Notes under the pieces: generated by a model
Told to the model about the DNA's origin: nothing
The model's input: the letters and a program-made list of their open reading frames with translations, nothing else
Database searches by the model: none
Program-made: the position numbers and the translations under genes
In this document: positions 25,476-63,700 of the stretch, piece after piece
Layout: the number at the start of each line of letters is the position of its first letter
Numbering within the stretch: the stretch's first letter is position 1
NCBI RefSeq assembly: GCF_021028975.2
Contig: NC_059428.1
Location: forward strand, 80,290,001-80,354,000
Source of the DNA: Sphaerodactylus townsendi
Taxonomy: Eukaryota
Direction of reading: 5' to 3'
DNA: 64,000 nucleotides

Positions 25476-25502
25476 TCTTGTGTATGAGAGTCATCATCTT
25501 CT

Positions 25503-25682
25503 GGTGTGTGTAAGCTATCAAGTCACAGTCAACTTATGGCAACCCCAGTAAGGGGTTTTCAAGACAAGTGAGAAGCAGAGATTATTTGCCATTGCTTTCT
25601 TGTGCAAAACCTTCCTTGGTGGTTTCACTTTCAAGTATTGAATCTGCTTAGTTTGCAAAACCTGATGAGATCAGGCTACATC
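25503..25682 (-). mobile_element. 5S rRNA-headed SINE with Sauria/BovB-type tail
   Basis: Minus-strand head TAGCCTGATCTCATCAGG..AAACTAAGCAG..TACTTG..ACCACCAAGGAA resembles 5S rRNA. Tail reads GCAATGGCAAA...CTTGAAAACCCC...GCCATAAGTTG..TGACTTGA. Confidence 0.65.
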
Positions 25683-26935
25683 ACACTGTCTTCCATTGTC
25701 TTCCATTCTAGAGATCTTATTTCCTACAAAAGCTCTTGGTTATCTTCCAGGCATAATTCAATGTATTGATTTTTTCCATAAAGCATTCAATGACTGAATT
25801 CTAACTAGTCTAAGAGACTTCATTTTAACTATACTATGTATGCATGTTTAGAAATGATGGTTATAAGGCTACAGTCACTTCTCCAGGAGTAAACCCCACT
25901 TGATAACATGGGATTATTTTGAAGCAAAGATACTTTGAATTTCTTGTAAATTTATATAAAGAGGCATTCTCAGTAACGGTTCTGCAACTATGGATCTCAC
26001 TTCCCTCAGATGGTAAATTAAATATGATAAAGGTTGACAAATCAAATGAAGATCAACTTTGAAATCTAGCAACAGTTTTGTTCTTTTGAAGAGAAGCAAC
26101 CATGATCATATTTTAATTATTTTCCTTTGGAAAGACAACTAATTAAAAAGACAGTGGCCCTGTTGAAAGCTTGTTAGCGAATTTAATTTTATTCTAATGA
26201 GTAATCTCAAAACTATAAGTGGAATTTCTCACCTGTGTAAAACTGAACATATTTAAATGGTTTGCTGGATTGAGGCCAGTGATAGTATAATTAAGTACAC
26301 TTATAATTTGGAAGTGCTCATTTAACAAGTTTATAATTAAGAAAAAAGCTTCAGTCTAAATTATATCATAAATATAATGGATGTCAGTCTTTACAAAGAG
26401 GTGAGAAAGTATAGCTGCACATCTCAAGATATTATATGTGCAATGTGTAGTGTGAATGTTAAAATTAATCACTATACCTATACAAAGCATTTATTTATTT
26501 AGTGGGATGGGAAATAGCTTACAGCCCTGATACACACAAACTACTTATACATGGGGTTTTTTTTCTAATCGAGCTGCCAAGACTGCATACAGATAGCATC
26601 AACAAACTTTCAATTGTTTGGCAGACATCATAATGGGAACTGTATACAACCTACCCACTCCAGTAACTATCCTCATTGAACAACCAATTGCAGGTACTGC
26701 TAATTTGCAAATAGGACAACACACAAATATATCTACATATGTCTATGGATGAGAAACCAGGTAACAAATAAATGGTGAGAATGTGGTGCTCCATTCTAAT
26801 TGCTGGAGCTGTCTATGTATGACCCTATTACTTAAAACAACTATGATCAGTTGATCAGGAGAGAGGCACGTGTATGTCAACTGGCTGAACTGGGGCAATA
26901 ATCTCACATGCCTAATTTTCAGGTTTATTGTTTCA

Positions 26936-27594
26936 CTAGCAGTAAAGCCCATTTTGTGCTCCAATAAAAAGGGCTCTAGATGGGGGGAGGGCAGGGGAAT
27001 AGGAGTCTGGTGTCTGGTGGGTGACAAGCCATTGCTGCCCCAGTGGGCCCTGGCTTGGTGTTTGGACTGGGTGTCACCAGACAGAAAAATGGGAGGCTGG
27101 TGCCTGGGGGCAGTGGGTCAACAGGCTGCAGCCCTGGTTTGGTATTTGGGGTGGCGGGAGACCAGATTGGGGAATGGGAGGCTGGTGCTGAGGCAGAAAG
27201 CCCCAGCTAGGTGTTTGGAGCACGGAAGGTGAGGTGGGGAAATGGAAGGAACAGAGGCCAGACAGGAAAATGGGAGGCTGGTGCTAGTGACCAGCAGTGC
27301 CCTGGGCATAGGGAGGGCAGGGGAGTTGGGGTAGGGGTAGCTTGGGCAAGGGAATGGGAGGGACAGGGTGTTCAGGCAGTGGAATGGGAGGCTGGTGCCA
27401 GGGGCTGGCAGGGCAACAGGTGCATGTCACCACTGCCCTGGCTGGTCCAGCTTGGTGTTTGGGACAAGGGGAGAGCAGTGGGGGACTGGCAGTGTGCCAG
27501 TCATCATACGGGACTCAATCCCACACACAACTGAGTCCTGCACAGCAATTAGCTAGGAGTGAGCCATCATGACATAGGCAATTATACGTTTAGA
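26936..27594 (-). mobile_element. Non-autonomous Helitron
   Basis: Minus strand reads A|TCTAAACGTATAA...GCCC-loop-GGGC hairpin TTTACTG CTAG|T. No TSD. Internal decayed repeats ATGGGAGGCTGGTGC. Confidence 0.65.
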
Positions 27595-28108
27595 TTAGTT
27601 AAGGAGCAAAGTAGAACCTACTACACCAAGGCAAAAGCAAAACTACAGGAATGCAAAATATATTACATTTAATGTAAAAAAACAAATAAAAATGTGTATA
27701 TCACCCACACACACCCCAAAAAATTGCATAAATGGGTGCATTAATCTAACATGTCATAATTCCATAACAGAAGCATTGGTAATTGAACAGGTATTAAGTT
27801 CAAAAGATTCTGAAGTAATGTCCCACAGAACAGGGCCCTCTTGTAATTGTTGAAAGATTCAATGATTAGTCACATATGAAAGCCACATATGAACAATGAA
27901 GACAGGGAATTCTGGATAAGTCACCCGTTTCACCCTCAGTGTCATGGGACTGATCACTTACAACAACTTAATAGCATGTCCTATCTTGGGAGTCAATATG
28001 AGACATCTTATAATATAAATACAAAAATAACTGAAGGCTTAAAAGCATAAATATCATAAATATAGTATCATGTAAAATACGGTAGTACTAAGTTATAAGA
28101 AGTAGTCT

Positions 28109-29718
28109 TTGGCCCCCACACCCGTCCGGGTGGGGGTGCTGCTGGACTGGCTGCAGCATTATCCCGACAGGCACGTGGTGCGCATGCTGGGTGATGGTTT
28201 TTCGACAGGTTTCAGGATTCCCTATCGCGGCCTCAGGAAGGCCTACCAGGCGAACAACTTAAAATCTGTTCGCGATCACCCTGGCGTGGTGGCCGATAAG
28301 CTTGATAAAGAAAATAGGGCCGGTCGCATCGCTGGCCCCTACAGCCACCCGCTTCTCCCCAACCTCCGGGTCTCCCCCATCGGCATAGTGCCCAAGAAGG
28401 CCCCGGGGGAGTTTCATTTAATTCAGCACCTCTCCTACCCCTGGGGCGACTCAGTGAACGATTACATCGACCCTGAGTTTTGCACAGTCCGGTACGCCAC
28501 CCTGGACGAGGCCGTCAGTCTCATCAGGCAGGCCGGCACAGGTGCCTCCTTGGCAAAATGTGACATCCAGTCGGCCTTCCAGCTCCTGCCCATTTCCCCG
28601 CTGGATTTCAAGCTTCTGGGCATCCACTTCCAGGGCATGTGGTACGTGGACAAGGCCATGCCCATGGGCTGCTCCTTTGCCTGTGCCGCTTTCGAGGCTT
28701 TTAGCACCTTCCTCGAATGGGCCTTCAGGCAGCGGGTGCCCTCCGGGCTGGTGACCCATTACCTAGATGATTTCCTGTTCATTGGCAAGCAGGGCACCAG
28801 GGAGTGCGAGGTCGCCCTGCAGGCTTTCCAGACAATGGCTGCCGAACTGGGGTCCCCCTGCCCCCCAACAAGACGGAGGGCCCCACCCCCGCCCTCAGCT
28901 ACCTGAGCATCCACCTGGATACGGTCCTAGGCACGTCATCACTCCCTTGTGACAAACTCCTGGCCTTAACCAACCTGCTTCAGTCCGTTCTCCCCCTGCG
29001 CAAATGCAGGGTGCGCCTGGTGCAGTCCTTACTGGGCCACCTCAATTTCGCCTGCAGGGTGGTGGCACCAGGCAGGGCTTTCTGCTCCCAGCTGGCGAGG
29101 TCGTTGTCTGGCTGCAAGTCCCCTGACCACCACATCAGGGTCTCCCGGGGCCTGAAAGACGATCTGCGGGTCTGGCTGTCCTTCATCCAAGGCTTCAATG
29201 GCATCTCCTTGTGGCAGACACCTCTGGAGCCCGGCCTGGAGTTGCAGGTGCACTCTGATGCCTCGGGGGCTCACGGTTTTGGCGTGTATTTCCAGGGTCA
29301 GTGGGCACAGGGCCTCTGGCCTCCAGCATGGCACACACAGGGCATCACCAGGGACCTCACTTTTCTAGAACTGTTCACCATCTTGGTGGCGGTGCACATT
29401 TGGCACGATCTCTGGCTCAATAAATGGGTGCTTTTTTGGTGCGATAACCAGGCGGTGGTGCGTGTGGTGAACAGGCAGTCGAGCAAAGCTGCACGGGTTA
29501 TGCGTTTGGTTCGCAATCTTGTCCTCACCTGCCTCACCTATAACATTTCTTTTAAAGCTGCTTTCGTTCCAGGTTTGCAAAATGCGATCACTGATGCCTT
29601 ATCTCACCAGCAGGTGGATCGATTCCGGCACCTGGCCCCCGGGGCGGAGCTGTTCCCGGCGACAGTGCCGGCGTCCCTGTGGAACCTTGGCAGCGAGCCG
29701 TCATCACAGGTGTTTTGA
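28109..29718 (+). pseudogene. Ngaro pol: reverse transcriptase plus RNase H (one frameshift near 28855-28870)
   Basis: RT motifs VSPIGIVPKK, AKCDIQSAF, AMPMGCS and HYLDDF (YLDD at 28760-28771). RNase H motifs HSDASG, FLELFTI, WCDNQAVV and NAITDALS. Confidence 0.93.
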
Positions 29719-30556
29719 ACTCGTTGGCACCGGCCACGCGCAGGCAGTACGACAGAGCCGTGCGCGACTTCCGGAACTACGCAGCGTCCAAGGGGCGCCC
29801 TGTCCGTGGCGGGGTAGACACGGGTCTTCTACTTGAGTATTTGGTAAAACTCCACGGTCGGGGGATGCACCCACGCTCTATGGGGGTGCAACTGGTGGGC
29901 ATCGCCTTTTACTGCAGGGTTTCGGGCTTCCCAGATGTGACCAAGGCGTTTGTAGTTCGCTGGCTGGTGGCGGGCTGGCGGCGGGTGGGCTCCAGACAGA
30001 GGGACCTCCGGCGCCCGGTCACCAGGGAGGTGTTAAGGGCGGTCACTGGGGAGCTGCGGCAGGTGTGCGCTTCACGCTATGAGCGTTTACTCTTCGCAGC
30101 CGCTTTTCACCTGGCGCATCATGGGGCTTTTAGGCCCAGGGAGCTAGTCGCCCCCACCGGGGACCGGCCATCCAGCACTGCGCTGCAAAGGGAGCACCTA
30201 GTCCTGTCCGGGGACATGGTCTATGCGTGGCTTGCCCATTCCAAAACCGACCAGGAAGGCCGCGGTGCCCCCTCGCCTCCCTCATCTCTTGGCTCTGGCA
30301 CAGGCCTCGCATGGGTGGCATGCTCCTGGTACACGAGGACGGTTCCCCCCTCACCAGGTTCCAGATTCTGGCGGCGTTCAGGGCATGCTTGGCTCGGGCC
30401 GGGCTGCCAGTCGCCGAGTTCGGGTTGCACTCCTTCTGAATTGGGGCCGCCATGGCCGCTGCGCAGGAGGGCAGGGCCCAGGAGGACATCCGCACCTTGG
30501 GGAGGTGGCGGTCGGGGGCCTTTGGGGCTTACATCCGCCCCCATCTGACTTGTTGA
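29679..30556 (+). pseudogene. Ngaro tyrosine recombinase (frameshift near 30270; H-x-x-R Arg replaced by a stop at 30437)
   Basis: SLAPATRRQY, GAFRPRELV, HSKTDQ.GRG, LTRFQ, GLHSF*IGAA and GRWRSGAFGAYIRP. Confidence 0.92.
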
Positions 30557-30568
30557 TTCCCTTCACAG

Positions 30569-31177
30569 TGCCTCCAGGGACGCCGCAGACTGTTTTTCGA
30601 CAGGTGTGGGTCGTGGGGCACAGCCTCGTCAACGGAGTCGGGGACTACGCCTGCTCATCTGACTGGGGCCAGCATCTTGGACTCAGGGCTCATGTAAGGA
30701 TCACCTGGCTGGGGCAAGGGCACATGCTTTGGCATGAACTCGAGCCCAAGCTCATCGAGTACATTTTCCAGTTGGCCACGCCGGATCTCCTAGTTATTCA
30801 CCTGGGGGAGGAGGATCTCTCGGCCAGGTCCGGTCTGGAACTCCGTTGGGCGGTGGCCGCCACGCTTCGGAGCCTCGCCAGGCATCGGCCCGGCATAACC
30901 TTGGTCTGGTCCGAGCTGTTGCAGCGGGTCCACTGGAGGGGAGCTGTGGACCCCACTGCCGTGGACAGGGCTTGCAGAAAAGTCAACAGGGCGGCCGCCA
31001 AGGTGGTGCTCTCCCTCGGGGGGGGCGGTGGTGGACCATGCTGAGATCACCCAGGACAACAAAGAACTTTTTGAGCCGGATGGCGTCCGCCTGTCCCGCT
31101 GGGGCATGGACTTGTGGCTTCAATCGGTCCGGTACACCCTCCTCCGCTGGGTCCGGTCCAGACAGGCTCAGGCTTGA
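30569..31177 (+). pseudogene. SGNH/GDSL hydrolase-like ORF of the Ngaro element (frameshift in the G-run near 31020)
   Basis: VWVVGHSLV (block I), WLGQGHMLW (II), LVIHLGEEDL (III), LVWSELLQR, LFEPDGVRLSRWGMDLW (V). Confidence 0.85.
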
Positions 31178-31344
31178 GGAGCTTGGGCGGGGAGCTGCAA
31201 GGGGGGCAGCTCGTGGTGGGTTTGCAATGGGTGTCGCACATCTGGGGAGAAAACGAGCCTTCCGGCTGGGTCTCCCAGGCTTGTGCCCTGTGGAAGGGCC
31301 GGGGGGTGGGGCGGGCAGGCTGGCAGGCCGGCAGGCCGGGCCGC

Positions 31345-31475
31345 TGCCCGACACCCCAGGGAGTGGGGTTGGGTCGGGCCGATAGGCGGCCAAGGGCTTA
31401 GCCGGTGCCCGACACCCCAGCAAGCAAGGAGAGGAGGGTGGGCCGATAGGCGGCCATGGGCTTAGCTGGTGCCCG
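31345..31475 (+). repeat. ~62-bp tandem direct repeat in the Ngaro 3' region
   Basis: The unit TGCCCGACACCCCAG...GGGCCGATAGGCGGCCAWGGGCTTAGCYGG occurs twice plus a partial copy. Confidence 0.85.
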
Positions 31476-32559
31476 TCTCCTCAGCAGGGGCGGGAAGGGT
31501 GAAGCCGGAGTGTTATCTCTGGGGCTTCCCTTCCCGTCAGTTTCCCAATGGAGATTGGGATGTGATGTGCGACCCGTTTGCCGCCCAGCTCTTTTGTACA
31601 TAGTTCATGTTGATTATGTTATTGAATAATTAATAAACTGGGCTGCGGCCCATTCCTTTCCAGCCTGTCGTTGTTGTGTGATTATTGAGCGAAGTAAAGT
31701 CTCACCATCTGCAGCAATAATGACTTGTTATTCTTTCCCCTTCATTTTTGACAAAATACAGATTTTATGGAATCTCTTCACATACCATTTGCCTTAATAA
31801 AATCTGTTGGGCTGGATTAAAAGAGGAATCACAAAAGAAAACATTAATTGTTAATCAAGCAGAGACGGAGATATGGCCAACTGGTATGGCTAGAACTGGC
31901 TAAATCTCAGGACACAATTACATCCATCTCCTGACACCACTACAATATTTTGATCAAAATGTAATAAAAAGGAATTCCTACAAATCAAATACATTGGATT
32001 AGTTACTAAGCAACACAGATAAACAAGGTCAATAACTGTGTATGCTGTAAAACTGTGCTTTTAACCTCCCTGTCCCATGCAATCTTCTATGTGATCTGGA
32101 CCCTGGCTACATTCATATCACATGTTAATATCAATGGTAGGTGCACCTCAAAATGTGACTGGTTTTATTTTGTTTCTGGGATACCACTGTCTGCTAGCTC
32201 AGTGCTCCATACTGATTCCTCATTTTTAATCTGAATCTTGTTAGAGTAATAAAGCTACTTGCTGGTTGAGTGTTTTGGCTCTCTTCTATTCTTCCTTTGT
32301 CTTAGATTTAATCTGAAATTCCACAATCCCTCACTCATGTCTCATCCCTTATCTTTAATCTGTAATAAACAAATTTGCTTCACCATCTTTTTAAGCACTT
32401 GCTGTTGAAGTGCTTCTTTGTAAGTGAAGAGAAGTCCTTCCCATTGAAACCATGTAAACCTTATTTGGTTCTTCCTTAAAATGTCCACCAAACATGCATA
32501 GTCTTTCCTTTTCTGTAAGACTCCTAAAGGTATTTTTTCCCATCACAATGGACTTGGCA

Positions 32560-32885
32560 TACACGCACTACATGTAGCACCAAGGCATATATTTACCTTA
32601 TCCAATGCCCATGTTCACTTCTGTACATTGGGATGTCTACTAGGGTGCTATGCTCACATTCAGTGGAGCATTGGTCAAAGATTAGAAATAAATGTGCAGA
32701 TGCATCATTGGTGCAACATTTTATGGAAACGGGGCATACCCAAGATGACTTTAAATTTTCTGTACTGTATGAATGGAAGAGCTGCCCCTTTAAACGAAGC
32801 AATATTAAATGCAGATAGAAACCAAGCTTATTTTGCCTTCCATTCATGTTTTCCTACTGGTATTAATAATGAGATAAAGTAGTCT
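32560..32885 (+). pseudogene. Penelope-like element GIY-YIG endonuclease C-terminal remnant
   Basis: TCSTKAYIYLIQCPCSLLYIGMSTR...EHWSKIRN...LVQHF..GH...FKFSVL, then FPTGINNE, typical of Neptune-type Penelope elements. Confidence 0.8.
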
Positions 32886-35365: not shown

Positions 35366-38300
35366 TTATTTTTTTCCCAAATATTGAATGAATGGTTCCC
35401 ATGTTTTCTGGAAGCTAGTTGATGGCAGATCTTTCAGGCTAACAGATAGTTTATCTGTGTTCATAATTTCTACTACCGCTTTGAACCAGGCGTTAATACT
35501 GGGAGGTCTCCTATTTTTCCAGAATTTTGCCACTTGGATTCTTGCTATTGTTGAGAAGTACAGAAACAATTTAATGTTATCTACTCTCTCATTATCTTGG
35601 AAAATTCCCAATAAATAATTTTCAGGTAACATTTGAAATTTGTGACCCAAGATCTTCTGAACTTTTTTATGGATTTTTTTCCAAAACCTTTTCACTTTTT
35701 TACAACTCCACCATTGGTGAAAATATGTGCCTATCTTTTTATTGCACTTCCAACAGTACGGGGATTTTGTTTTATCAATTTTCGCTAATTTAAGAGGTGT
35801 AAGGTACCACCTATGAAATACCTTATTAAAGTTTTCTTTCAAATCTATACTCTGGGTGTATTTACCGTGGTTTTTCCATGTTTCTTCCCAATTTTTGTAC
35901 ATCAAGTTTTTGCCTATATCTTGGGCCCACTTAATCATCACTTCTTTTATAGTTTCATGCTCCAAATTTGTTTCTAAAAGAAGTTTATATATTTTACTAA
36001 TCAATTTAGTTTCAGATTCCCATAGAATCATGTCTAATTTGTTAAATTTACGTTCAAACCCCATAGTATGCGCATCTTTTAGAAAACCTTCTCTAAGTTG
36101 CGCGTAAGTAAACCAATGACAATTATCTGTTCCTATTAAAATATCATCTCTATTTTTCAAGATCGGTTTATCGTTATCCCATCTTATTAGATTTTTATAC
36201 ATTGGCCATTCGTTGTTTGCATAACATTGTCTATTTTGGGAGGCTTCCAATCTTGAGACCCATAGTGGCACTTTACTATAAAGGTTCCTCTTATATTTCT
36301 CCCAAATTATTATTAGGGGTCTTCGTATGGCATGATCTTTAAAATTTGCCATTGATTTTTTTGATGCAGGCCAAAGATATTCGTGCCAGCCCCAACTATT
36401 ATCAAAACCTTCCAACTGCAAAATTTGATTGTTTGTTAATGTGATCCACTCTCGAATCCATATCAAGGCATTAGTGTCATGATATAGTTTAAGATCGGGT
36501 AGTGCCCAACCCCCTCTCTCTTTGGTATCTATCAGTGAGGTGGATTTAATTCTGGGTCTCTTGTTATTCCATACAAATTTTGTTAAAGTTTGCCTCCATT
36601 CTGTAAATATTTTAGTAGATGTAATAATTGGGATGTTTCTAAACAAATACATCAATTTTGGCAGTATTATCATTTTTATAAGGGCAATTCGTCCAGAAAA
36701 AGAGATGTTTAAATTTTCCCATTTTTTTAGATCTGTCTTTAATTCTCGCCATAATTTCTCATAGTTATTTCTGTATAGATTATTTCCAGAAGGATTCCAA
36801 GATATTTTATCTTTGATGTTTGATTTATGCCTGTCATATTAATTAATTTTTCTTCTTGTCTTTTTGTCAGATGATATGGAAACATTTTGGTCTTTTCTTT
36901 ATTGAGGATGAATCTTGCGTTATCCCCGTAATCTTGTATTAGTTGTAATAATGGAATTAATTTTTCCTCAGAGTTGTCTACAAACAAACTTCTTATGTCT
37001 CGCGGCTTTGAGTTTTATCTTTTTTTGATTTTTATTCCCTCGAAATTTTGATTTTCTCTTATTTTATTTAACAATACTTCTAATGTCGCATTAAACAATA
37101 GGGGTGACAATGGGCAACCCTGTCTTGTTCCTTTGTAAATATTAAAGCTTTCTGATAGGTTGCCATTAATTTGAAGTTGTGCAAGTTGTTGATTATATAT
37201 ACTGTGGACCGCTTTCCGCCAAAAGGACACAACATTCATTTCATTTTGTAAGGATAGTTCCAACTAATCCAGAAACTTTTTTTCAGCGTCAAATACTATA
37301 GCTAATGGGTGCTTTTGATCTTTTTTGCCAATTCAATAATATTGAGTACTGAATTAGGCATTACATGATGCCGCCCTTTCTTGGAACCTCGCAATGTTTT
37401 CTTTCTTATATTCATTCATCGCGGGAATCTTTCGGCCAAGATAGATGTAAAGATTTTGTAATCGTTGTTTAACAACGATATCGGCCTAAAATCCTTAGGT
37501 TGTAAACTATTTGATTTTTCTTTTGGTATAAGGGAGATATAAGTTTGTTCCCAAGATTTCGGGAGGGATCCTTTTTGTAATATATTATTCATTACTATCA
37601 TTAATTGAGGTGACAGTATGTCTATGAATTTTTTATAAAATTTTATAGGAAGACCATCTGGTCCTGGAGATGTTCCTGGCTTGGCTTTTTTTATTGCAAT
37701 TTTAATTTCTTCTATAGAAATGGGTTCATTCAGAATTTTTCGTTGGTTGTCACTCAATTCTTGAATGTTTTCATTCTCTAAATATCGTTGAATTTTTTCC
37801 CATTTTGGATCTTTTTCTTGATAGAGTTTTTCAAAATATTGTTTTAGTTCATTTTGAATCGATTTTACATCATTGATAATTTTTTCACCTATTTTTAAAT
37901 TATTTATTTGTCTCTGTTCTTTTTCTTGTTTTATTTTGGCCATTAGCCATTTTCCTGGTTTATTGGCCAGACCAAAAAATTTTTGCTTAATAAATTTCAG
38001 ATTTTTTGCCATTTCATCTGACCACATACCTTGCAGTTTTTGCCTTTTAATAAATAATCTATCTTTGATTTGTTTACTTCTTGGTTTTTTCTGAAGTTGC
38101 CTTTCTAACGACCGAATTTCATTGAGGATCGTATTTTTTCTTTTTCTTTTTTCTTTTTGACTATACATTCATTTTGTATTAATAGACCTCTTGGGTATGC
38201 TTTGCATGTTTCCCATACTATTTTTTCATCCTGGATAGAGCCTTTATTAATTTTAAAAAATTCTGTCAATTCATTTGCGACCTTCTCTACTGTCTTGTCA

Positions 38301-39073
38301 TTATCCAAGAGCCAGTCTTTCATTCTCCATGTTCGGTATTTCCTTTGTGTTTCTATTTCCCACAAAATTGATCCATGGTCAGATATCACTTTCGGTCCAA
38401 TTTTTATCTCTTTTGTTCTTTTTAATAGATTACCTGTGGCCCAAATCATGTCAATCCTCGATGAGGATTTATGTCTGTATGAGTAGTATGTATAGTCTCT
38501 AACATTTATATTCTTTTCTCTCCAGATATCTTTTATTTGAGTCAAATCTATCAGATCATTAAATGATTTTGGAAGCATCCCAGTTTTCATTCTTTTTAAT
38601 CTTTTTTTGTTTGGGTTGCTTTTATCATTCATTGTATCCATTACACCATTGAAATCTCCCAAAATTACAATATTGTCATGATTTTGATCTAATAGGAAGT
38701 TCGCAAGGTTAGCATAAAACTCTGATTTATTATTATTTGGTGCGTATATACCTACAAATAGGATTTTTTCTCCCTCTACTATGGCTTCTACGGCCAAAAT
38801 TCTGGCCTCACTATCTCTAAAAATTTCTGTTGGCGATAGCGTATCTTTTATATAAATAGCAACTCCACGTTTTTTTCTTTTGTAGCCATTATGAAAAAAC
38901 TTTCCTAAGGCCTCTTTTTGTATATGGTTTTCCAAGCCCTTTTTAATGTGTGTTTCCTGCAGGCATATCACATCACAATATTGTTTTTTTAAGTAATGGA
39001 ATATAAGCTTTCTTTTGCCCGGATTATTCATCCCGTTCACATTGTTTGAGAAAATTTTTAAAGACATTTTCAT
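35366..39073 (-). pseudogene. L1 ORF2p (APE endonuclease, RT, Cys-rich domain), disrupted
   Basis: NVNGMN, CLQETH, GDFN, SRID, SDH (endonuclease); SPGPDG, FRPISLLN, GTRQGCPLSPLLF (RT); CWKC...HQWWSC. Frameshifts at ~38150 and clustered in ~36700-37420. Confidence 0.93.
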
Positions 39074-39678
39074 TGATTAATACAATTACAATTTCAAGAA
39101 GCAATAATAAATTATTTTGTTTGACACTATTTCTATATCTATAGGTATCTTATAAATATTGTTTTAACTTCTTTCAATCAAAGCCAGGCAGGAGAGGGGG
39201 TGCCTGGTTTTCTCATAAAAGTGCATAGTAGAAAAAATTAAATGAATGGGGGGGAAATATATAATAGAAAGAGAGTAAATTATGAGGAAAGGAATAATTT
39301 ATAAATTATACATTATGAGGGGGAGCAGATAAAGGGGGCGAAATTCAAAATATGTTAGATTTCATCTCCATTATCCTGTTCTTCATTTTGAAAATCATTC
39401 CGCTACCAATCAAACCCAACCACACACCTACACACACAAAAAATCATACATTATTTATAAAAGTTGAACAATGTGTCAAAAATGCTAAATTAATAAAAAG
39501 AAAAGTGCGGTAAACATCATAAGGCATTACATCAGTTTTTATATTTATTTTAACTATGTTTTTCTATCCCTCCTCTCCCCCTTATTTCATGCATATATGA
39601 GTATCGTTATAGCTTGGCTATACAAATCAATATCTAAATATAGAACAATTCTCCTACCAGAATATTTAGCTGTAGTCT

Positions 39679-40479
39679 CTATACTAAGCCCAGTTCTCTC
39701 TTATTTTTCTTTAAGAATTCGTCTATTTTGGGCAATGAGTCGATATTTACTCTCTTCCCTTTAAATGAGAAAGTCACTCCTTCAATTTGGTTCCATTTAT
39801 ACAAAATGCTCTTTTTCTTTAAGGTTTCTGTTAGTGGGGCATATTCTTTTCTTCGTCTCCTTATTGAAATGGGGATTTCTTTGTAGATAACTAAGTTTTG
39901 TCCTTCTAGTTGAATCTTTTGGGTCGAATGTTTATGGAGGATTTCCTCTTTTAATGATCTTTTTGTAAAGTTGATCAGGATATCCCGTGGCAATTTATTT
40001 TCCAAGGCAAATCTAGAGTTTATCCTGAAAATGTCATCTATTTCTAAATCAAAGTTGTCCTCTTCCATGTTGATGGCTTCTGCAAGCACAGGGACTATTC
40101 TGGATCTTAAATTTTCATTTTCCATTTCTTGTACTCCTCTTACTCTTATAGTTCGTTCTTTTTGTTTTATTTCCATATACAATATTCTGTCCTCCAGACT
40201 TTCTACTTTTCTAGTTTGTACTGTAGTTTCCTCTCTTAGATCCCTTACTTGGACTTTTGTTTCAATCATATCTTGATTTAGCTTCAATATTGTTTCTTCC
40301 ATCTTTTTGACTTGAGAAACTTCTTCTCTTACTAGTTGTATCTCCTCCTCTATCTTGTTCAATCTAGTTGCAATCCCTTCCAATAATTGTTCCATTCTTT
40401 GAGTGCCTTCCATAGTACTCTTTTCAGGTGTTTTGGAGTCACCATTCACTAGTTTTGTATTATTTCTCTTTGATGCCAT
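39679..40479 (-). CDS. L1 ORF1p (coiled coil, RRM, CTD), open, 266 aa from the first ATG
   Basis: Heptad-rich N-terminal half, followed by TIRVRGVQE, IDDIFRI, PRDILINF and LVIYKEIP..IRRRRKEY. Confidence 0.9.
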   Translation of the reverse strand: MASKRNNTKLVNGDSKTPEKSTMEGTQRMEQLLEGIATRLNKIEEEIQLVREEVSQVKKMEETILKLNQDMIETKVQVRDLREETTVQTRKVESLEDRILYMEIKQKERTIRVRGVQEMENENLRSRIVPVLAEAINMEEDNFDLEIDDIFRINSRFALENKLPRDILINFTKRSLKEEILHKHSTQKIQLEGQNLVIYKEIPISIRRRRKEYAPLTETLKKKSILYKWNQIEGVTFSFKGKRVNIDSLPKIDEFLKKNKRELGLV

Positions 40480-41961
40480 TCCTAATTGTCTCTTTAAATC
40501 ACTTTCCCCTCCCAACGTATGCAACTGTTAGGCACCCTCCTCTCCCAGCACCGGTTAGTTTAGCAGTTCATTCGCAAAAGGGTTTCTGTAGGTCTCTATG
40601 GGTCTCCTTTTCTTTTTGTTGTTTGATTATTTATTTTGTGTTATGTCGTTTTGCACCTTTCCCCCTTCCGCAATATCATAGTATCTCTTGTTTACCTGGA
40701 ACGTCACTTCCACTTTCCTTCACTCTCGTTTCTTCTCGCGCTCGCCCACGCGCACGCGGCTTTCCGTCTGGTTTTTTTTTAAAGAGCCCCCGTCCAATGC
40801 ACAGTCTCTTTAAAAAATATTACAGTAAGTTTGTTATAAGTTTATACTATTTCTCTTTACCTTCTGTCTTGACGTTTTGAGGAGTGGGGGTTAGTGAGTG
40901 AGAGTTGAGCTGGAAATTCCTTTCATCTCGTCTCACTTTGCACTCGGCATCTCTTCCTCTTATTTTCTCAGTAGTCTTTTCTCGCGACTTTGCATGTACC
41001 TTTACTCCGGCAAGTAGAAAGTTTCTTTTGCACTTTGTCAGTGATTCTCAGCGTCGATATCCTCCCGTTTCCTTGTGCTTGATGTTCTCATTGACCAAGG
41101 AAAACTAACAGAGGTGGTTGAGCTTTGGGCTTTTGGGCTTTTTTCGCCCCTCCTTGCACAGTGCAATGGGATCGCCTTTGCCGGTTAAACCCTGTTCTTC
41201 AGGCGAATTCCCATGAAGTTGTCCAGGCTGACACCCCTCTCTTACGATAGGGGTGGGAGTCTGAAATTATCAGACCTTTGTGCACCTGCACAATTATGTT
41301 ATTTTTTTCTCCGTTTTTTGCGCGGAGAAGAAAAGCCGCCCGTCTTCCCTCAACCGGAGGAGAAGACTTTCTCAGTAGTGGCACCAAAACTCTGGAACAC
41401 TCTCCCCAATAAAAGCCAGCTGTAATAAGGAGTTTCAAAATAATTTCTAAGTCCAAACTCCAGGTGTGACTTTCAAGAAAAATAAAAAAGTTTATTGAAA
41501 AGTAGCAAAAGAGCAGAGCTACCCAAAGGGAGTCTGTTCCAGAAGTAACTCTTTCTGGGCACCAAGTGCACTCCTTTTATTACAGTAAAGTCATTAATCC
41601 AATATACATCTTCACTGTTGATAGCTACCAGCCCACCTTTACACAAGCCTTTAAAGTTAAGAAAGTGTGAAGGTGGGGCTTTCATATTCAATTGGGTCAT
41701 AAGGTTTCTCTTTGTCATTCTGCCAGACTGTCTTAGCACCTAACCACAGTGGGCTCACCTCAAGCCAGCCTTCTGTATGAAAATTAACCTAAGGTTTCTC
41801 TCACCAAGATACCTTCATAGACAATGTGTCTCATTTAGGGTCACAATGTACAGTACTATTCCTTAGTCATAACTCTGTTGGGCATCTTGTCAAAGGAAGG
41901 GTGGGCTTGTATTGTCTCCAGCTGACCACAATAGAAATTGAAAGCAGAATGCCTTACAAAA

Positions 41962-52209: not shown

Positions 52210-52504
52210 CACTTCAGTGGATGCGCTTCATGTACTCATAGGTGGACGCACAAAACATCAGGATGATGATGAAGAAGAAATTCTTGGCTGTTGGTCAATA
52301 AAAGGTGGGAGTATATTTAATTATTGTGAGCCAGATTCTTGTGATTGTGACTAAAGAGGCTGAAGAAGACAAGCAGTTGAAAGTATTGGTTTTTCCCGGT
52401 CAATACTCCCACCTTCTATTGACCACAAGCCAAGAATTTCTTCATCATCATCCTGATGTTTTGTGCGTCCACCTATGAGTAAATGAAACTCATCCACTGA
52501 AGTG
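52210..52504. repeat. ~100-bp inverted repeat with an 88-nt spacer containing a decayed hammerhead core (Penelope-like)
   Basis: Arms 52210-52314 and 52403-52504 are near-perfect reverse complements. The spacer contains CTGAAGA A GAC AAGCA GTT GAAA. Confidence 0.75.
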
Positions 52505-55975: not shown

Positions 55976-56389
55976 CCCCCACCCCCCAATTGCAATGGCA
56001 ATTCCCAAACCAGCTTTATCAATAGGGGATGCTCCCTGGACCTTTAGAATATCATCTAAGTAGCATGTAACATTAATACTACCTGATGCTTGTCAGGATG
56101 TCCACTCCAGCACTGTACTAAATTTTCAAAGGCTGAACAAGTCAAGGAGCAGCCCATGAGGAATGCCTTATCAAAATAATATTGCACCTCAAACTAGAAA
56201 CCTAATAAACCAAAATTGTTCAGGTACATAGGCAACAACCTGAACATTTTCCTAGCAAAGCTTCCTGACTGCAGTCCCAAACCATAGCTTTGGGCGGGCA
56301 GTGGGGGCCATTTTGCAGCAGCTGCACTGGCCAGAGGGGTGTTGTTTCGCCAGGCAGTGGCACATTGGGGTGAGGCCATTGCTCAGTAG

Positions 56390-58135
56390 TAGATCATTTG
56401 TTAAAGCGAGCTGGGAGGGAACATGGAAGCCAGAGGCTCTTGCTTAGGAACAGTTGGCTCTGATTAATGTTACAACCCCCCCCCTTTTTTTCCCCTCCAC
56501 CTGGGTCACAGTTTGGGCATCAATCAGCCAGGCATCAGTGCATTAGGGGCTGCAACTCTACCCCTCCTTCCTCTGTGCATAGCATCTTTTGTGATTTTTT
56601 TTAAAAGGGGAGCTATTGAATGTTTATTTTGAACAATAATACTGATAGTTCCTGTTATCTTACGTGAATCTTTTTGGAATAGTGTGTTTACATGAGCAGC
56701 TTGTTTGATCATTGGAAATATAATGGTACCTAAGCCAAGGTTCCAAGGAACTAGGTCCTGTGACCCCGTCGCAGCAAGAGCTTCAAAGAGGGGGCAGGCA
56801 AATCTGAGAAAGCACGGATACTTGCCCAGCAGCAGTAGGCCCACGCCTGCCCCCATGCTGCCCCAAGGCAAACCCTCAACCCCGCGGACAGCTCAGGCTG
56901 TGGCAACTGCGAGCACTCACAGAACAAAGAGGGGTAAGGGCACTTCACCGCCACCCAGAGCAGGGGCAAGGACTAAGGCCACACTCCCGGCCCCTAGCCC
57001 AGGTACCCTGGCAGTTGTCCCCTTGCTAGTGGGCTCTTTGGGGCATAGTGGCACCCCGCCCACCCCCGCCACCCCAAATTCATGGGTTGCAATGGGTAAC
57101 TTGCTAATGCAAGGTATGGTAAAAACACTCGTCCAGTTCCCTCAGAATCCTAACTGGACGCCGAGCGAACCCCCTCTCCCCAGCACTAGTGCGCAAGCTT
57201 CTAGCCCTGATCCACAGAAGGGTTCCCCAGGGGAAAAATTTCTGCTTCATCCCTACAGGATGGCAGGAAAACCTTCAATGACTCAGCGTCTTCTATAGAA
57301 AGGGAGAGTGTGTCATGGGCTCCTGCCACCCATCCAAGGAAGAAAAGCAGGAAGTTGTCTCACTGGAGAGCTCATCATCAGGCTACGGAGAGCTCGTCGT
57401 CCTATGAGGACTCCTCTGATGAGGACTTTGCCCATGCAGATGGAGCATATTGAGCAGCAATGGGTGGGTTCCCCCTCACTGCCTCCTGTTTTAGCCAAAC
57501 TGATGGACACGAGCCTGGCTTCCTTTGCAGAGGCTCCACTCCACCCCCACAGGCCTGGATAATGACATAGCAGACACCCTATCCCACTCCCAGGTGGAGA
57601 GGTTCCGAGCCCTGGCTCCTGAGGCCAAGGCCCTGCTGGAGCAGTTCCCACATGAGCTTTGGAACATTGGCGACACTGGATAGGACTTAGGATGCTCAAG
57701 TCACTAGCCCCTTCCACTTGGCACACATACCAGGGCACGCAGCATGGCTTTTTAGATTTTCAGAAGGTCCATACTAGCCAGGTCTTGGAAGCTTTCCACG
57801 AGGGATCTCTCCTGAAGTACTTGGACCATCTCCGGTGCACCGGACAATCAGCTAAGACTTTATGTTTATTCTTAGCAGCAGTGGCATTTTTTTTTTTGCA
57901 AGGTCTCATGGTTGCTGATCCTTCACGCTCTTTTCTGGCATGGCAAACTGTTAAGGGATGGGATGGGCCTCAGCCAGGAGACGGGATGGTTGTCATCCCA
58001 TCACACTGGACCTGTTGTCACAGCTAGCAACCATCCTAAAGTTTGCTTTCATCAGTATTAGAAGCTACTGTTTAGGGTGGCATTCTCATTGGCATTCTTT
58101 GGCGCAGCATCAAAATTGTGGCTGCTTCCAGGTGA
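56390..58135 (+). mobile_element. Internally deleted Ngaro-type element (5'/gag part joined to RNase H end and YR N-terminus)
   Basis: Pro-rich ORF 56705-57298, then GLDNDIADTLSHSQVERFRALAP..LWNIG (RNase H end) overlapping EHWRHW..KSLAPSTWHTY...DPSRSF..HPITLDLL (YR). The RT core is absent and the element is truncated by a MITE. Confidence 0.8.
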
Positions 58136-58140
58136 TATTA

Positions 58141-58731
58141 CCGTATATGCTCGTGTATAAGCCGAGTTTTTCAGCCCTGTTTTAAGGCTGAAAAATGCCC
58201 CCTCGGCTTATATACGAGTCACTGCTTACCAGCAGGCTCTTCAGGCCTCTGCCGAGGCTGGGGGCGTGGCCGAGACAACCTCCCTGCAGCTGCACAAGCT
58301 GCTTGTTCCTGCCCTCCTGGGAGGGTGAAGGGGAACCCTGGCTGGCTGGGCTTCCTCAATGACTCCCCCCCCGACACGTTCAAATAAGGAGCTCCCTCCA
58401 CCTCCTGGCTGCCTGGGCTTCCTCAAACCCAGTGGGAGGTGGAGGGAGCTCCTTATTTGGGCAGTGATTCCCCCTGATGTCATTGCTCAAATAAGGAGCT
58501 CCCTCCACCTCCTGGCTGCCTGGGCTTCCTTAAACCCAGCCGGGAGGTGGAGGGAGTTCCTTATTTGGGCAATGACATCAGGGGGAGTCACTGCCCAAAT
58601 AAGGAGCTCCCTCTGCATCCCGGCTTCCCACCTTTGGCTTATATGTGAGTCAATACGTTTTCCCAGATTTTGGTAGTAAAATTAGGTGCCTTGGCTTATA
58701 CACGAGTCGGCTTATACAGGAGTTTATATGG
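58141..58731. mobile_element. Tc1/mariner-pogo (Tc2/Tigger-like) MITE with TA TSD
   Basis: TA|CCGTATATGCTCGTGTATAAGCCGA...TCGGCTTATACAGGAGTTTATATGG|TA. Confidence 0.85.
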
Positions 58732-59800: not shown

Positions 59801-62264
59801 ACGATCTAAATAAACAAAATACAATTCAAAAACTCAAATTCACTGAACTATATTCTGGATCCTGTATCTTCAGGAACACAGCTTAAGGGGTCAAGAGTCC
59901 TTTGAGTTTGACCTCTAGCCATAGCTATGGGAGAGAGAAAGAAGCTCCACCTAGCAGCAACTGACAGATGTTAACATCTTCCTCCTTTTGTGTTATTTTA
60001 AAATAAAATTGTTTCTTGTTAATTTGTAAAATTATGTTAAGTAACTGGCAGATATGTTGCCAGAATTCCCCTCCTGTGCTCTAAAGGCATCAACATTGTC
60101 AGACTGATTGGCTGTACGTGATCTAAAAAATTAATGGACACAAACCCACATCAAGTCAAAGAATATAGCCACAGGGCAAAGATATTAGGACAAGTGGAGC
60201 AGTGAAAATACATGGCAACCTGGAATCAAATGAGAGTGCTGCTCTGAAAGTGAGCACAATGGACAAAACTGCCCAATTGACTGAAAATGCTAATTGCTGC
60301 CCAGTGGGGTTATGCCACACTAAAACGTGCTGTATGTCACTGGACAGAGAAGGGGGTGTTCCCTGATGAAAAGTCTGTTGGCTTCATCCTGAGGAATGGC
60401 TCCAGATCACTCTTACCCACACTGGTGTGGGCTTCTGTGACAGTTCACAAGAATTTTATGGGGGGAGGTGCAAATGGACAGATGGAGACAGCGAAGGGCC
60501 ATGCTAGTGCATTTGCTCCCTCAACTGGTGTAACGGTGGAGAGGGCAAAGGTACCCATGGCTGGGCACCCTTTAGTTCCACAGCAGTGAAACCAGGAAGT
60601 GGCCACCATAGAAAAATGCTGGAGTCCAATTGGACACCAGTGCAGGGGGTGGACAGGCTGGGGCATCCGATGTTAGTCGGTTTCCACCGGAGTTTAGGGC
60701 TGAAAACATGGAAGCCCAGGCCTCGGACTTATGCCATCCTTTCATTTAGCTCTATGACGGGCTTTCAGGTAGTGGGGGTTAGTTTTTTCCTGCCTCCCCA
60801 GGCCACCTGAAAGTCCTCAGTGGCAGAGCATGGCAACAGTAGCATACCCAACCTCCTCAGGCTTTGGATTGGGCTGCTCAAGGCCTCTGACCAGAGTTGG
60901 GATTCAGCAGGTTCACACCACTTCGGCAGAAGCGGTTGTTGAAATGGTGCTTGTAAACAACCAATTGTTAAATTATTTGAATCTCACCAATGCCTCTGAC
61001 ATTCTGTTTCCAGGGTCATATCCAATTCAGAGGCGTGGACAAAAGACAAAATTCAACAGCTGAAAGTGTTGAAAAGCAGTCTTTGTGGAGGGTGGGGGAC
61101 ACAGCTCACCTTACTAGTTGTGCTTCAAAAGGGACCAGTCAATAGATTCAAAGCATTGCATCGCATTTTATTTGCTCAATTATTATACAGCTAATTAGCG
61201 AGCTGCTGCTCACATTGCTTCATTTTCAGTGAGGAGAGACAGGCAGAGAAAGATATGAAGTGCTAATGAATAAAGCAGAAACAAAATGTACAGCAAAGAA
61301 AAATGATGCTCCTGCAAAAAAAAAAAAGACCACTCTCTCCTAATGGCTAATATAGCATAAGTGCTATTCACAAAATAAACACTTTCTCTCTTACAGCATT
61401 AGAGCAGTTTACATATGCGGATCCCACAACCTGCATTCTCCACTAAGTGCTGTAGTGATTAAAACCCCATTGTCCACAAAGGCAAACATAAGGAGATGCT
61501 GGTTTTGATTGAGTAGAAAGCTCATCTGTTTGACAGCACTGTATAATAGCAAGTAACTGTGATGATGAACTCTTTCAATAGTACTGTAGATATGATAACT
61601 ATAGTGCATTAACAGCCCTAGAGTTATAATCCAGAAAGTACTTCTGATATAATCCATTATCAAACAATCCATGTTGACAAAAAGAATAGAACCTTCGAGC
61701 TGGAATTAACCATGTCTAATCCTTCAAAAGGCATACTGTTTTTTAAAGTTCTATATAGTTCAATTTGGTAGATTTAAAAAAAGTTCAGTTTTACAGCAGG
61801 AAAGGATTATAATGTAGTATCTGTCCTTCCTTGCAGTTATTCACCAGGTTTGTTTCAGCCAGAATTGAAATTTATTACCTTGGATTCATGCCTTGGATCC
61901 CTGTTTGTTTTAGTTCAGTCTGCCCTTGAAGACTTAAAAGAAAGTATCGTTTAGGAACACACATATACACATTGTACTTCGCAGAGCTGGCATCAGTAGT
62001 CAGCAAGGTCAAACAGATACCAAAGCCTGAGGGCTTCCCAGGGGCCAACCTGTTGTGGAATAATTGTGTTATTTTCATACAAGGAAAATTCAGTGGCACT
62101 GTAAAGACTAGCAACTACCATTTGCCACTGTAGGTAAAGGACAGAGATTCAGGTTTCAGAGAGTGGACACCAGGGGGCATAAAAGCAAGCAATAATAAAA
62201 CAATTAAACTCCATAGCAATAATTCATACCAAGCATTGACTTCTCACTCCTCTTCACCATAAGG

Positions 62265-63700
62265 TAAGGTAATTGAGAGAGCAGTGGTGGATCAGCTCCA
62301 GAGGTTCCTGGATGATGCTAATGTATTGGATCCCTTCCAGTCTGGTTTCTGCTCAATTTGGATAGAGGTAGTTTGGCACTGCTGGTGTTATTAGATCTCA
62401 CCACAGCGGATCATGGTGATCATGGATCATGGCCTTTTGGTCCACCGCCTCACTGATATGGGAGTTCAAGACTGGCTAGCCTCATTTCTCCAAGACTGGG
62501 GACTGCAGGTAACATTGGGGGGAGAGAACTCCAGGCATCATCCCATAATTTGTTGGGTGCCACAGGGGGCGATCCTCTCTCCAATGCTTTTTAATGTCTA
62601 TATGCACCCCCTGGTGAGTTTGGTCCAGAGTTTTGGGCTGCAGTGTCACCAATATGCGGATGACACCCAGCTCATGTTCACGATGGAGTTCACGATCTTC
62701 AGCCCCTGGAGCTCTCCAGCATTGTTTAGAGGCTGTGGCTGGTTGGTTGAGAGCGAGCCAGCTGGAAGTTAAATCCTGCAAAGACAGAGGTCCTATGGTT
62801 GGGTCTAGGGGAGCAACCGGTGGACCTTTGCCTGCCTACACTGAACAACGAGGCTTTGCATTTAGCCTCATCTGTCAGAAACCTGGAAGTGACCTTGGAC
62901 CCAACATTGACACTTGAGGCCCAGGTCACTTGGACAGGCCAGGTAGTGTTCCATCACTTGAGGCAGGCAGGACAACTGGCCTCATATCTCTCCCGTTCTG
63001 ACCTGGCCATAGTGATCCATGCAATGGTCACCTCCAGGCTTGATTATTGTAACTCGCATTATGCTGGCCTGCCTTTTACTGTGATCCGGAAACTGAAATT
63101 CATGCAACATGCGGCAGCCAGACTCCTTACTGGAGTGTCTAGCCAGGACTGAATTATACAGGTTCCCATACCATCTGCACCAGCTGCCCATTGAGTTCCA
63201 GATCATATTAAAGGATTGGTTTTCACCTTGAAGGCTATAAGCGGCCTTGGGCCTACATACCAGAGGGACCACATCTCCCCATATTGCCCCACTAGGTGCC
63301 TATGCTCCTCGGAGGAGAATCTATTAGTGGTCCCTGGCCCGAAGGCCATCTGGTTGGCCTCTTTTGCAGCCCTGGCCCCTATCTGGTGGAACAGGCTCCC
63401 TAGAGAGACCAGGGCCCTGCAGGACTTGCACAGTTTCTGCAGGGCCTATAAAACGGACCTGTTCTGCCAGGCATTTGGCCAGCCAGGTTGATTGTCATCA
63501 GCCCTGTTCCATTCTAGGCCCCTCGTGGGCATGGAGAAGGGTGGGAGTTTATTGCCATCTGCTACAATATTGTTCCTTTTATGCTAATTTATTCTGAGTA
63601 TGGTTTTATTGGTTTTACTGTATGTATTTTAGATTTTTATAGTTTTACTCTGTTGTTCACTGTCCTGAGCCCTTCGAGGGAGGGCGGTTTATAAGTTTAA
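62265..63700 (+). mobile_element. 5'-truncated L2 LINE
   Basis: LDPFQSGF, VPQGAILSPMLFNVYM, HQYADDTQL, HAMVTSRLDYCNS, QHAAARLL and WWNRLP, with a typical L2 tail CTGAGCCCTTCGAGGGAGGGCGG. Confidence 0.9.

Follow-up and report, generated by a model that had tools for sequence, protein, structure and literature searches.

The window is a stretch of 64,000 nt on the forward strand of the Sphaerodactylus townsendi genome (GCF_021028975.2, NC_059428.1, 80,290,001-80,354,000), and all positions are counted within it. On its plus strand, at ~28100-31690, lies a Ngaro-type tyrosine-recombinase (YR) retrotransposon, here called the plus copy. Its parts follow in the order RT, RNase H (to 29718), YR (to 30556), SGNH hydrolase (to 31177) and 3' region. 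An older minus-strand copy and a third, internally deleted copy are also present. The features used below are:

28103-29718, plus strand: RT/RNase H ORF of the 5'-truncated plus copy, with a frameshift near 28860
29591-29613, plus strand: candidate YR acceptor inside the RNase H end, with CTGAT at 29591-95, a tract and tandem CAG-CAG (29610, 29613), phase 1
29614-30556, plus strand: YR ORF, broken by a frameshift near 30200-30250 and an internal stop at 30437-30439
30545-30549, plus strand: branch-point motif CTGAC (A at 30548), within the last YR codons
30550-30568, plus strand: pyrimidine-rich tract ending in a phase-1 CAG acceptor; the strongest candidate for the 3' splice site ahead of the hydrolase exon
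30554-30556, plus strand: stop codon TGA of the YR ORF
30569-31177, plus strand: putative SGNH hydrolase exon, with block I GHS at 30616-30624 and a frameshift in a G-run near 31020
30575-30577, plus strand: alternative phase-1 CAG acceptor, 3 codons downstream of 30568
31178-31690 (end approximate), plus strand: 3' untranslated/terminal region, with AATAAA at 31632
16960-21400 (5' end approximate), minus strand: older decayed Ngaro copy of another family, with gag core (20333-19926), RT/RH, YR and hydrolase (17456-16961)
56724-58150 (ends approximate), plus strand: third, internally deleted Ngaro copy, in which a gag-leader-like region is joined to the RNase H end, followed by a partial YR
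57577-57593, plus strand: YR acceptor region of the third copy, with a phase-1 CAG and 11/14 pyrimidines in the tract

The plus copy starts abruptly inside the RT ORF, and the DNA upstream of ~28100 is AT-rich and unrelated. No gag was found upstream of it; within the window, the gag-core profile matches the minus copy only. RT, YR and hydrolase each carry a frameshift, and YR has an internal stop in addition. In the hydrolase, the catalytic Ser is kept, while block III (GEED) and block V (DGVR) are both substituted. The CpG observed/expected ratio is 0.61 compared with 0.27-0.29 for the window, and the copy is therefore comparatively young. An earlier reading of this DNA, the original prediction, had called it young as well; the CpG content agrees with this, but the truncated 5' end, the missing gag and donor, and the frameshifts and stops had gone unmentioned. 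What remains at this locus is a Ngaro tyrosine-recombinase retrotransposon, truncated at its 5' end and broken, that is itself unable to make the leader-esterase product described below. Its 3' region contains a three-copy tandem duplication with units of 61-64 nt (31340-31486, plus strand).

The assignment to Ngaro is based on several features. The ORF order gag-like, RT/RH, YR is complete in the minus copy, and the plus copy has RT/RH and YR, its gag having been lost by truncation. No methyltransferase follows RNase H, as the RH ORF ends at 29718, ~35 codons past the last motif and with no Pfam match. RH (frame 1) and YR (frame 0) share a short overlap of ~105-124 nt in the -1 frame, and an SGNH hydrolase ORF follows YR. 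Split direct repeats (A1 / B1-A2-B2) were not found in the plus copy, which is without its 5' end, or in the minus copy, which is decayed and ends near an N gap. This assembly gap of 134 N (16546-16679) adjoins the 3' end of the minus copy.

Other repeats occur in the window. Opposite the third copy, a short Ngaro/DIRS-type RT fragment is found at 56045-56244 (minus strand). An L1-type LINE at 35366-40527 (minus strand) comprises ORF1 (Transposase_22, weak), an endonuclease (E=9e-17) and RT pieces, and a decayed LINE RT at 62000-63450 (plus strand; RVT_1, E=4e-13) is L2/CR1-like by eye. A fragment at 32588-32767 (plus strand) matches the tail of the chimeric model P0132 and resembles a Penelope-type GIY-YIG region. 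Self-BLAST detected palindromic MITE-like elements at 14683-14844, 2467-2680, 52210-52504, 58380-58628 and 1526-1657. The Gag ends keep a PFR motif in the minus copy (~19910-19900, minus strand, CCC TTT CGG) and in the lizard Gag proteins P0167-P0198. We take this motif to resemble the influenza PA-X +1 frameshift motif, and by this analogy a +1 slip there is a possible route to RT.

The boundary between YR and hydrolase in the plus copy has the layout of an acceptor, as had been predicted: CTGAC at 30545-30549, the YR stop at 30554-30556, a tract with 11/14 pyrimidines and AG at 30567-30568. This AG is the first one past the branch point, and the branch A is 20 nt away from the acceptor G. 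U2-type 3' splice sites consist of a branch point 18-40 nt upstream, a pyrimidine tract and the first YAG, and this combination occurs in the plus copy only, not in the minus copy. Further AGs ahead of GHS are located at 30577 (phase 1, tract 10/14 pyrimidines), 30588 and 30603 (both phase 0). When all 118 YAG sites in 28100-31700 were scored with a rule written post hoc from the consensus and with the target known (CTRAY 15-45 nt upstream, first AG after it, at least 70% pyrimidine), 30568 was the sole site to pass. In 300 dinucleotide shuffles, this post hoc rule was passed at the observed tract strength by 0.20 sites per copy, i.e., ~0.003 per 60-nt stretch. The frame at the junction reads LLIPFT and then V, which matches the tract-plus-junction pattern of the homologues described below. 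On the preferred reading, 30545-30568 would be what is left of a genuine U2-type 3' splice site, and for the family of the plus copy, use of 30568 appears about twice as likely as use of 30577. With regard to the donor, no site in the window could be tied to the homologous position; the minus copy, 24000-30568 and the third copy were scanned, and the best sites reached 5/7 matches, six of them in the minus copy.

Alternatively, the hydrolase might be a free-standing ORF with an ATG of its own, located inside YR or shortly behind it and used through reinitiation or an internal promoter; the acceptor motif would then result from chance or decay. The plus copy speaks to this in two ways. Between the YR stop and GHS its hydrolase frame has no ATG, which bears out the original prediction; the frame is, however, open from 30202 and contains in-frame ATGs at 30223 and 30385, both inside YR, that had gone unmentioned. 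The junction codon is GTG in the plus copy and ATG in the minus copy, which also fits a start codon. In the minus copy, CTAAT and a T-rich tract are present and no AG occurs between the YR stop and GHS; its hydrolase shares the frame of YR and has ATGs in this frame at 17498, 17480 and 17462. This copy had been described as having the same layout with the acceptor G apparently lost. The site read as the damaged acceptor, 17480, is itself an in-frame ATG, and with no AG in this interval we rejected the minus copy as support for splicing. As a test of the hydrolase acceptor it is uninformative or mildly against, and its YR acceptor region is deleted. Since the minus copy has three ATGs and no AG and the plus copy has upstream ATGs, the two window copies alone cannot decide on splicing.

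Evidence from outside the window bears on the same alternative. A Met just before block I is annotated in several homologues, and Gazolla et al. (PMC9210276) call all Ngaro ORFs overlapping. Against a start at an own ATG, such a Met (positions -16 to -4) is present in just 14/77 long models, and the same switch residue is found in leader-bearing and leaderless forms, in lizards and in oysters. In addition, an overlap of stop and start codon is absent from the hydrolase frame of both the plus and the minus copy, and the acceptor motif would rarely arise by chance under the post hoc rule. Hence, we consider an own start codon improbable. The preferred reading, a Gag leader exon joined to the hydrolase by splicing, is based on the homologous proteins.

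A HMMER scan yielded 1006 hydrolase relatives, the best 150 of which were examined. Among these, the named relatives come from lizards, newts, a frog, salmon and oysters, and the closest named homologues of the plus-copy hydrolase are lizard proteins with 41-46% identity. No homologue of the plus copy's own family was found among them, the best match having 46% identity. A word-index protein search gave 0/63 candidates at near length and two proteins only at longer length.

For the leader, residues 1-225 of P0155, a Podarcis model with accession XP_028572635.1, served as query and matched 33 proteins. All 33 share this lacertid leader: 20 continue as Gag, 12 into hydrolase and one into YR. The Gag forms, three of which are Logan records, carry core and zinc finger in 19/20 cases. 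In 11 of the 12 hydrolase forms the switch is at the same Gly, 10 residues before GHS; only P0193 switches later. In 20/20 Gag forms, T or M and then S come after this Gly, which fits a G|GT-A(C/T)G-T donor as read back from protein. In the leaderless lacertid forms P0017 and P0033, the same Gly is directly preceded by a stretch rich in F/L/Y/I/C, the kind of sequence expected when a pyrimidine tract is translated.

For oysters, annotated models agree with Logan proteins at 97-100% identity starting with a Gly 9 residues before block I, and their sequences upstream of this Gly are unrelated. The residue preceding this switch Gly is only A or V, matching GCA-G/GTA-G, i.e., CAG/TAG. A newt-type family has G/R-CV[GA]GP as its common junction, for leader, gag-core and YR pieces alike, and near-identical leader-hydrolase models of 306 aa occur at several newt loci. 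The lacertid matches represent one family and the oyster matches one family, and neither set is to be counted as independent events. The origin of the leader in gag is seen for the lacertid family only. The gag-core profile matches one of the best 150 homologues (P0039), so the leaders of the frog, newt, gecko and oyster families are not tied to a gag of their own.

The same pattern was visible when N-termini were compared. From the best 150 of 1006, 36 proteins without the block I anchor and one multi-domain protein were dropped; the remaining 113 comprise 36 short and 77 long N-termini, and 12 short ones had too little upstream sequence, leaving n=24. The fraction of F/L/I/Y/C at -24 to -12 was 0.267 for short (n=24) and 0.132 for long N-termini (n=77; p=2e-4), and the tract-plus-junction signature was found in 8/24 and 4/77, respectively (p=9e-4); as homologues are related by descent, these p-values overstate independence.

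The leader-hydrolase fusions could also be gene-prediction artefacts or internally deleted copies, with splicing absent or cryptic only. Most of the evidence is automated annotation: it consists of gene models and ORF calls and is read from protein, part of a RefSeq model can come from ab initio prediction, and prediction programs prefer acceptors that look good. In some models it is a YR, RT or gag-core piece that is fused to the hydrolase, which indicates predictor noise. Moreover, the window itself contains an internally deleted copy, and P0055 could be another. P0055 is a Logan protein (1677-nt contig) with leader and hydrolase in one sequence of 394 aa, and its leader matches RefSeq leader-hydrolase models (E=5e-7 among 150), while a search of the ESM Atlas with this leader gave no usable match. 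If Logan proteins are called without intron models, P0055 is either a spliced cDNA or a deleted genomic copy.

Deletions, however, would not hit one single residue that is flanked by donor-compatible codons in the Gag forms (20/20) and by tract-like residues in the leaderless forms. In the third copy, the gag-leader-like part (identified by eye) ends ~45 nt upstream of the phase-1 YR acceptor AG at 57592-57593 (tract 11/14), not at the acceptor, and the third copy is therefore not a spliced cDNA. Several models are also numbered isoforms, which need transcript support in NCBI's pipeline. Artefacts or deletions thus appear as improbable an explanation as an own start codon. We infer that the pairs of proteins with a shared leader reflect splicing, and we estimate a probability of about 0.82 that, at the family level, a Gag leader exon is spliced onto the esterase. 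To this extent the original idea, in which splicing yields the hydrolase mRNA and adds an N-terminal gag exon, is well supported for the family by the shared leader and the one phase-1-compatible residue, whereas the support once drawn from the minus copy falls.

YR ORF: The same kind of acceptor as for the hydrolase precedes the YR ORF, a feature that the original prediction did not contain. The first ATG of the plus-copy YR frame is at codon 85, within the N-terminal SAM-like domain. A conserved Trp is codon 26 when counted from the YR acceptor in both the plus copy and the third copy. Two RefSeq models from different lizard families, namely P0196 of Podarcis LOC114596625 and P0014, join the leader to YR exactly 26 residues before this Trp, and residue 224 of P0196 aligns to 29616; these two models are the only leader-to-YR joins. 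The plus-copy acceptor misses the post hoc rule, failing on the first AG at 29613 and on 70% pyrimidine at 29610, and the third copy has GCAGAC at the place of the branch point, which is not a consensus branch point. The CAG at the acceptor doubles as a Gln codon of RNase H, and 25/27 Gln codons in this ORF are CAG, which counts against the YR acceptor. Taken together with the joins in P0196 and P0014, the gag-leader donor is probably also spliced to this second phase-1 acceptor at the YR start.

A different mechanism would be programmed -1 ribosomal frameshifting or readthrough, which would make the hydrolase, and likewise YR, C-terminal extensions of the upstream ORF. It is suggested by the frames, as each ORF of the plus copy is in the -1 frame of the preceding one, the hydrolase frame of the plus copy overlaps YR by ~350 nt, and YR and hydrolase share one frame in the minus copy. 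For YR, Poulter and Butler (2015), as quoted in a passage of PMC13003380, thought programmed frameshifting probable; PMC13003380 also deals with Bou1, a Ngaro-like element of Pleurodeles with expression in testis. No in-frame XXXYYYZ slippery heptamer was found in the RH/YR overlap of either the plus or the third copy, which is weak evidence because these copies are decayed. The YR-hydrolase frame relation differs between the plus and minus copies, and frameshifting leaves the leader fusions unexplained. Hence, it is the least likely of the alternatives. As frameshifting has been the prior guess for YR, splicing of YR would change the accepted view.

The proposed splicing of the gag leader can be outlined as follows. 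In an intact element, gag would contain a phase-1 donor in its 5' part, downstream of an Arg/Lys-rich basic and a Ser/acidic stretch. Splicing from this donor to the hydrolase acceptor would remove the gag core, RT/RH and YR, and the subgenomic mRNA would encode a Gag leader (short helical segment, disordered linker, basic motif) followed by the SGNH esterase. Unspliced RNA would give Gag and RT, and the same donor would probably be spliced to the second phase-1 acceptor at the YR start. The Gag leader may recruit the esterase to the element RNP, where it may act like the esterase ORF1p of ZfL2-1 LINEs. With a slight leaning in its favour, we propose a wider programme of one donor and two acceptors from oysters to lizards, in which the Gag core is swapped for YR or for the SGNH esterase. 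Three proteins would then share a leader, by which they may be directed to one and the same particle, the YR acceptor inside a coding motif of RNase H would replace the assumed frameshift, and the esterase would be a portable exon captured by host genes.

Hydrolase domain: The AlphaFold2 model of the window hydrolase domain has an SGNH alpha/beta fold (pLDDT 95.5). Its best structural match is the SGNH esterase 7c23 (Z 13.1, rmsd 2.8, 134 residues aligned), and the top matches are mostly SGNH/GDSL proteins. By sequence, the best PDB match is the ZfL2-1 ORF1 esterase 4C1B (E=7.6e-12), the next one having 1.4e-3. All three catalytic motifs (Ser, GxND, DxxH) are present in 90/113 homologues, a count for which the anchor itself required a GxN-like motif. 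The Ngaro hydrolase domains are mostly basic, with a median net charge of +8 and a positive charge in 92% of the 113.

Leader-esterase product: The putative spliced product of lizards is predicted to have two short helices (35-45 and 50-69) and a linker, disordered up to ~227, that is followed by the SGNH domain. A self-association prediction for the leader helices, run without an alignment, gave a score of 0.07 and weighs neither way. No transmembrane segment was found in any of 7 proteins (maximal 19-aa hydropathy 0.93-1.44). The product is thus predicted to carry a mostly disordered leader and to be without Gag core, zinc finger or membrane anchor. The comparison with env made in the original prediction therefore applies to the mode of expression only; an env-like protein function was rejected in view of the SGNH fold and the missing transmembrane segment, and the leader has neither Gag core nor zinc finger. 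By analogy with the ZfL2-1 esterase, the Ngaro hydrolase may bind lipids or membranes. Rather tentatively, and with somewhat less than even confidence, the product could be a soluble, low-turnover, lipid-binding esterase that is brought to the element RNP by the leader it shares with Gag.

Large host-like proteins with one to six Ngaro-type hydrolase domains were also noticed and form two recurring families; examples are P0006 (Sphaerodactylus), P0012 (Eublepharis, ZNF318-like) and P0089 (salmon, cold-shock domains). Domestication or exon capture is a possible origin of these proteins.

The Ngaro hydrolase ORF is known, and passages of PMC9210276, PMC7192593 and PMC6681497 give its function as unknown. 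Splicing in Ngaro is not described in the literature searched, which was mostly titles and the starts of abstracts, nor mentioned in the passages retrieved from PMC3783388, PMC4157794, PMC10294476, PMC9341512, PMC5408684 and PMC13003380, so that novelty is provisional.

Splicing from a gag donor addresses two questions, namely the expression of downstream ORFs in YR retrotransposons and the role of the Ngaro hydrolase. If a conserved gag donor and two acceptors are real, the exact junctions can be checked in existing RNA-seq, and the real proteins would be defined as leader-esterase and leader-recombinase. Thousands of "uncharacterized" gene models of reptiles, amphibians and molluscs would then be element isoforms, a YR element would reach by splicing an architecture like that of the LINE esterase ORF1p, and a route for the esterase exon into host genes would be given.

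Retroviral env: In retroviruses and errantiviruses, a 5' donor is spliced to the env ORF on the 3' side, and pol is left out. The Ngaro hydrolase would likewise have a subgenomic mRNA from which splicing has removed pol, as the proteins with a shared leader suggest. Unlike env, its product has no transmembrane segment, an enzyme fold and a long Gag-derived leader.

DIRS-53_XT and DIRS-54_XT: These Xenopus elements (PMC9210276) are alike in having gag, RT/RH, YR and SGNH hydrolase, no methyltransferase and a short RH/YR overlap. In passages of that paper they are described with four overlapping ORFs and a hydrolase "with no proven function", and neither "splic" nor "intron" occurs in its main text as retrieved. 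Here, in contrast, the hydrolase, and probably YR, are apparent second exons of a Gag leader.

Plant Ty1/Copia shGAG: According to PMC5580714, conserved alternative splicing sets a retroelement protein ratio there as well. That splice gives Gag alone via premature termination, whereas here the Gag core would be replaced by another domain.

Bdelloid ORF3: The GDSL/SGNH ORF3 of bdelloid LTR retrotransposons (PMC5408684) is also an accessory 3' SGNH ORF in env position and without a TM domain. It belongs, however, to DDE-integrase LTR elements and is described there as captured independently of the LINE esterases, and the passages retrieved contain no Gag-leader fusion.

ZfL2-1 ORF1p: The esterase ORF1p of this CR1-type LINE (4C1B; PMC3905857) is composed of a coiled coil, an Arg-rich motif and an SGNH esterase, to which the predicted N-terminal helices, basic motif and esterase of the Ngaro product correspond. 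Passages of PMC3905857 describe the ZfL2-1 esterase as slow, as binding acidic phospholipids and liposomes, and as standing behind a dimerising coiled coil. The LINE ORF1 is encoded in one piece, whereas the Ngaro esterase would be added by splicing, in a YR element that has a true Gag.
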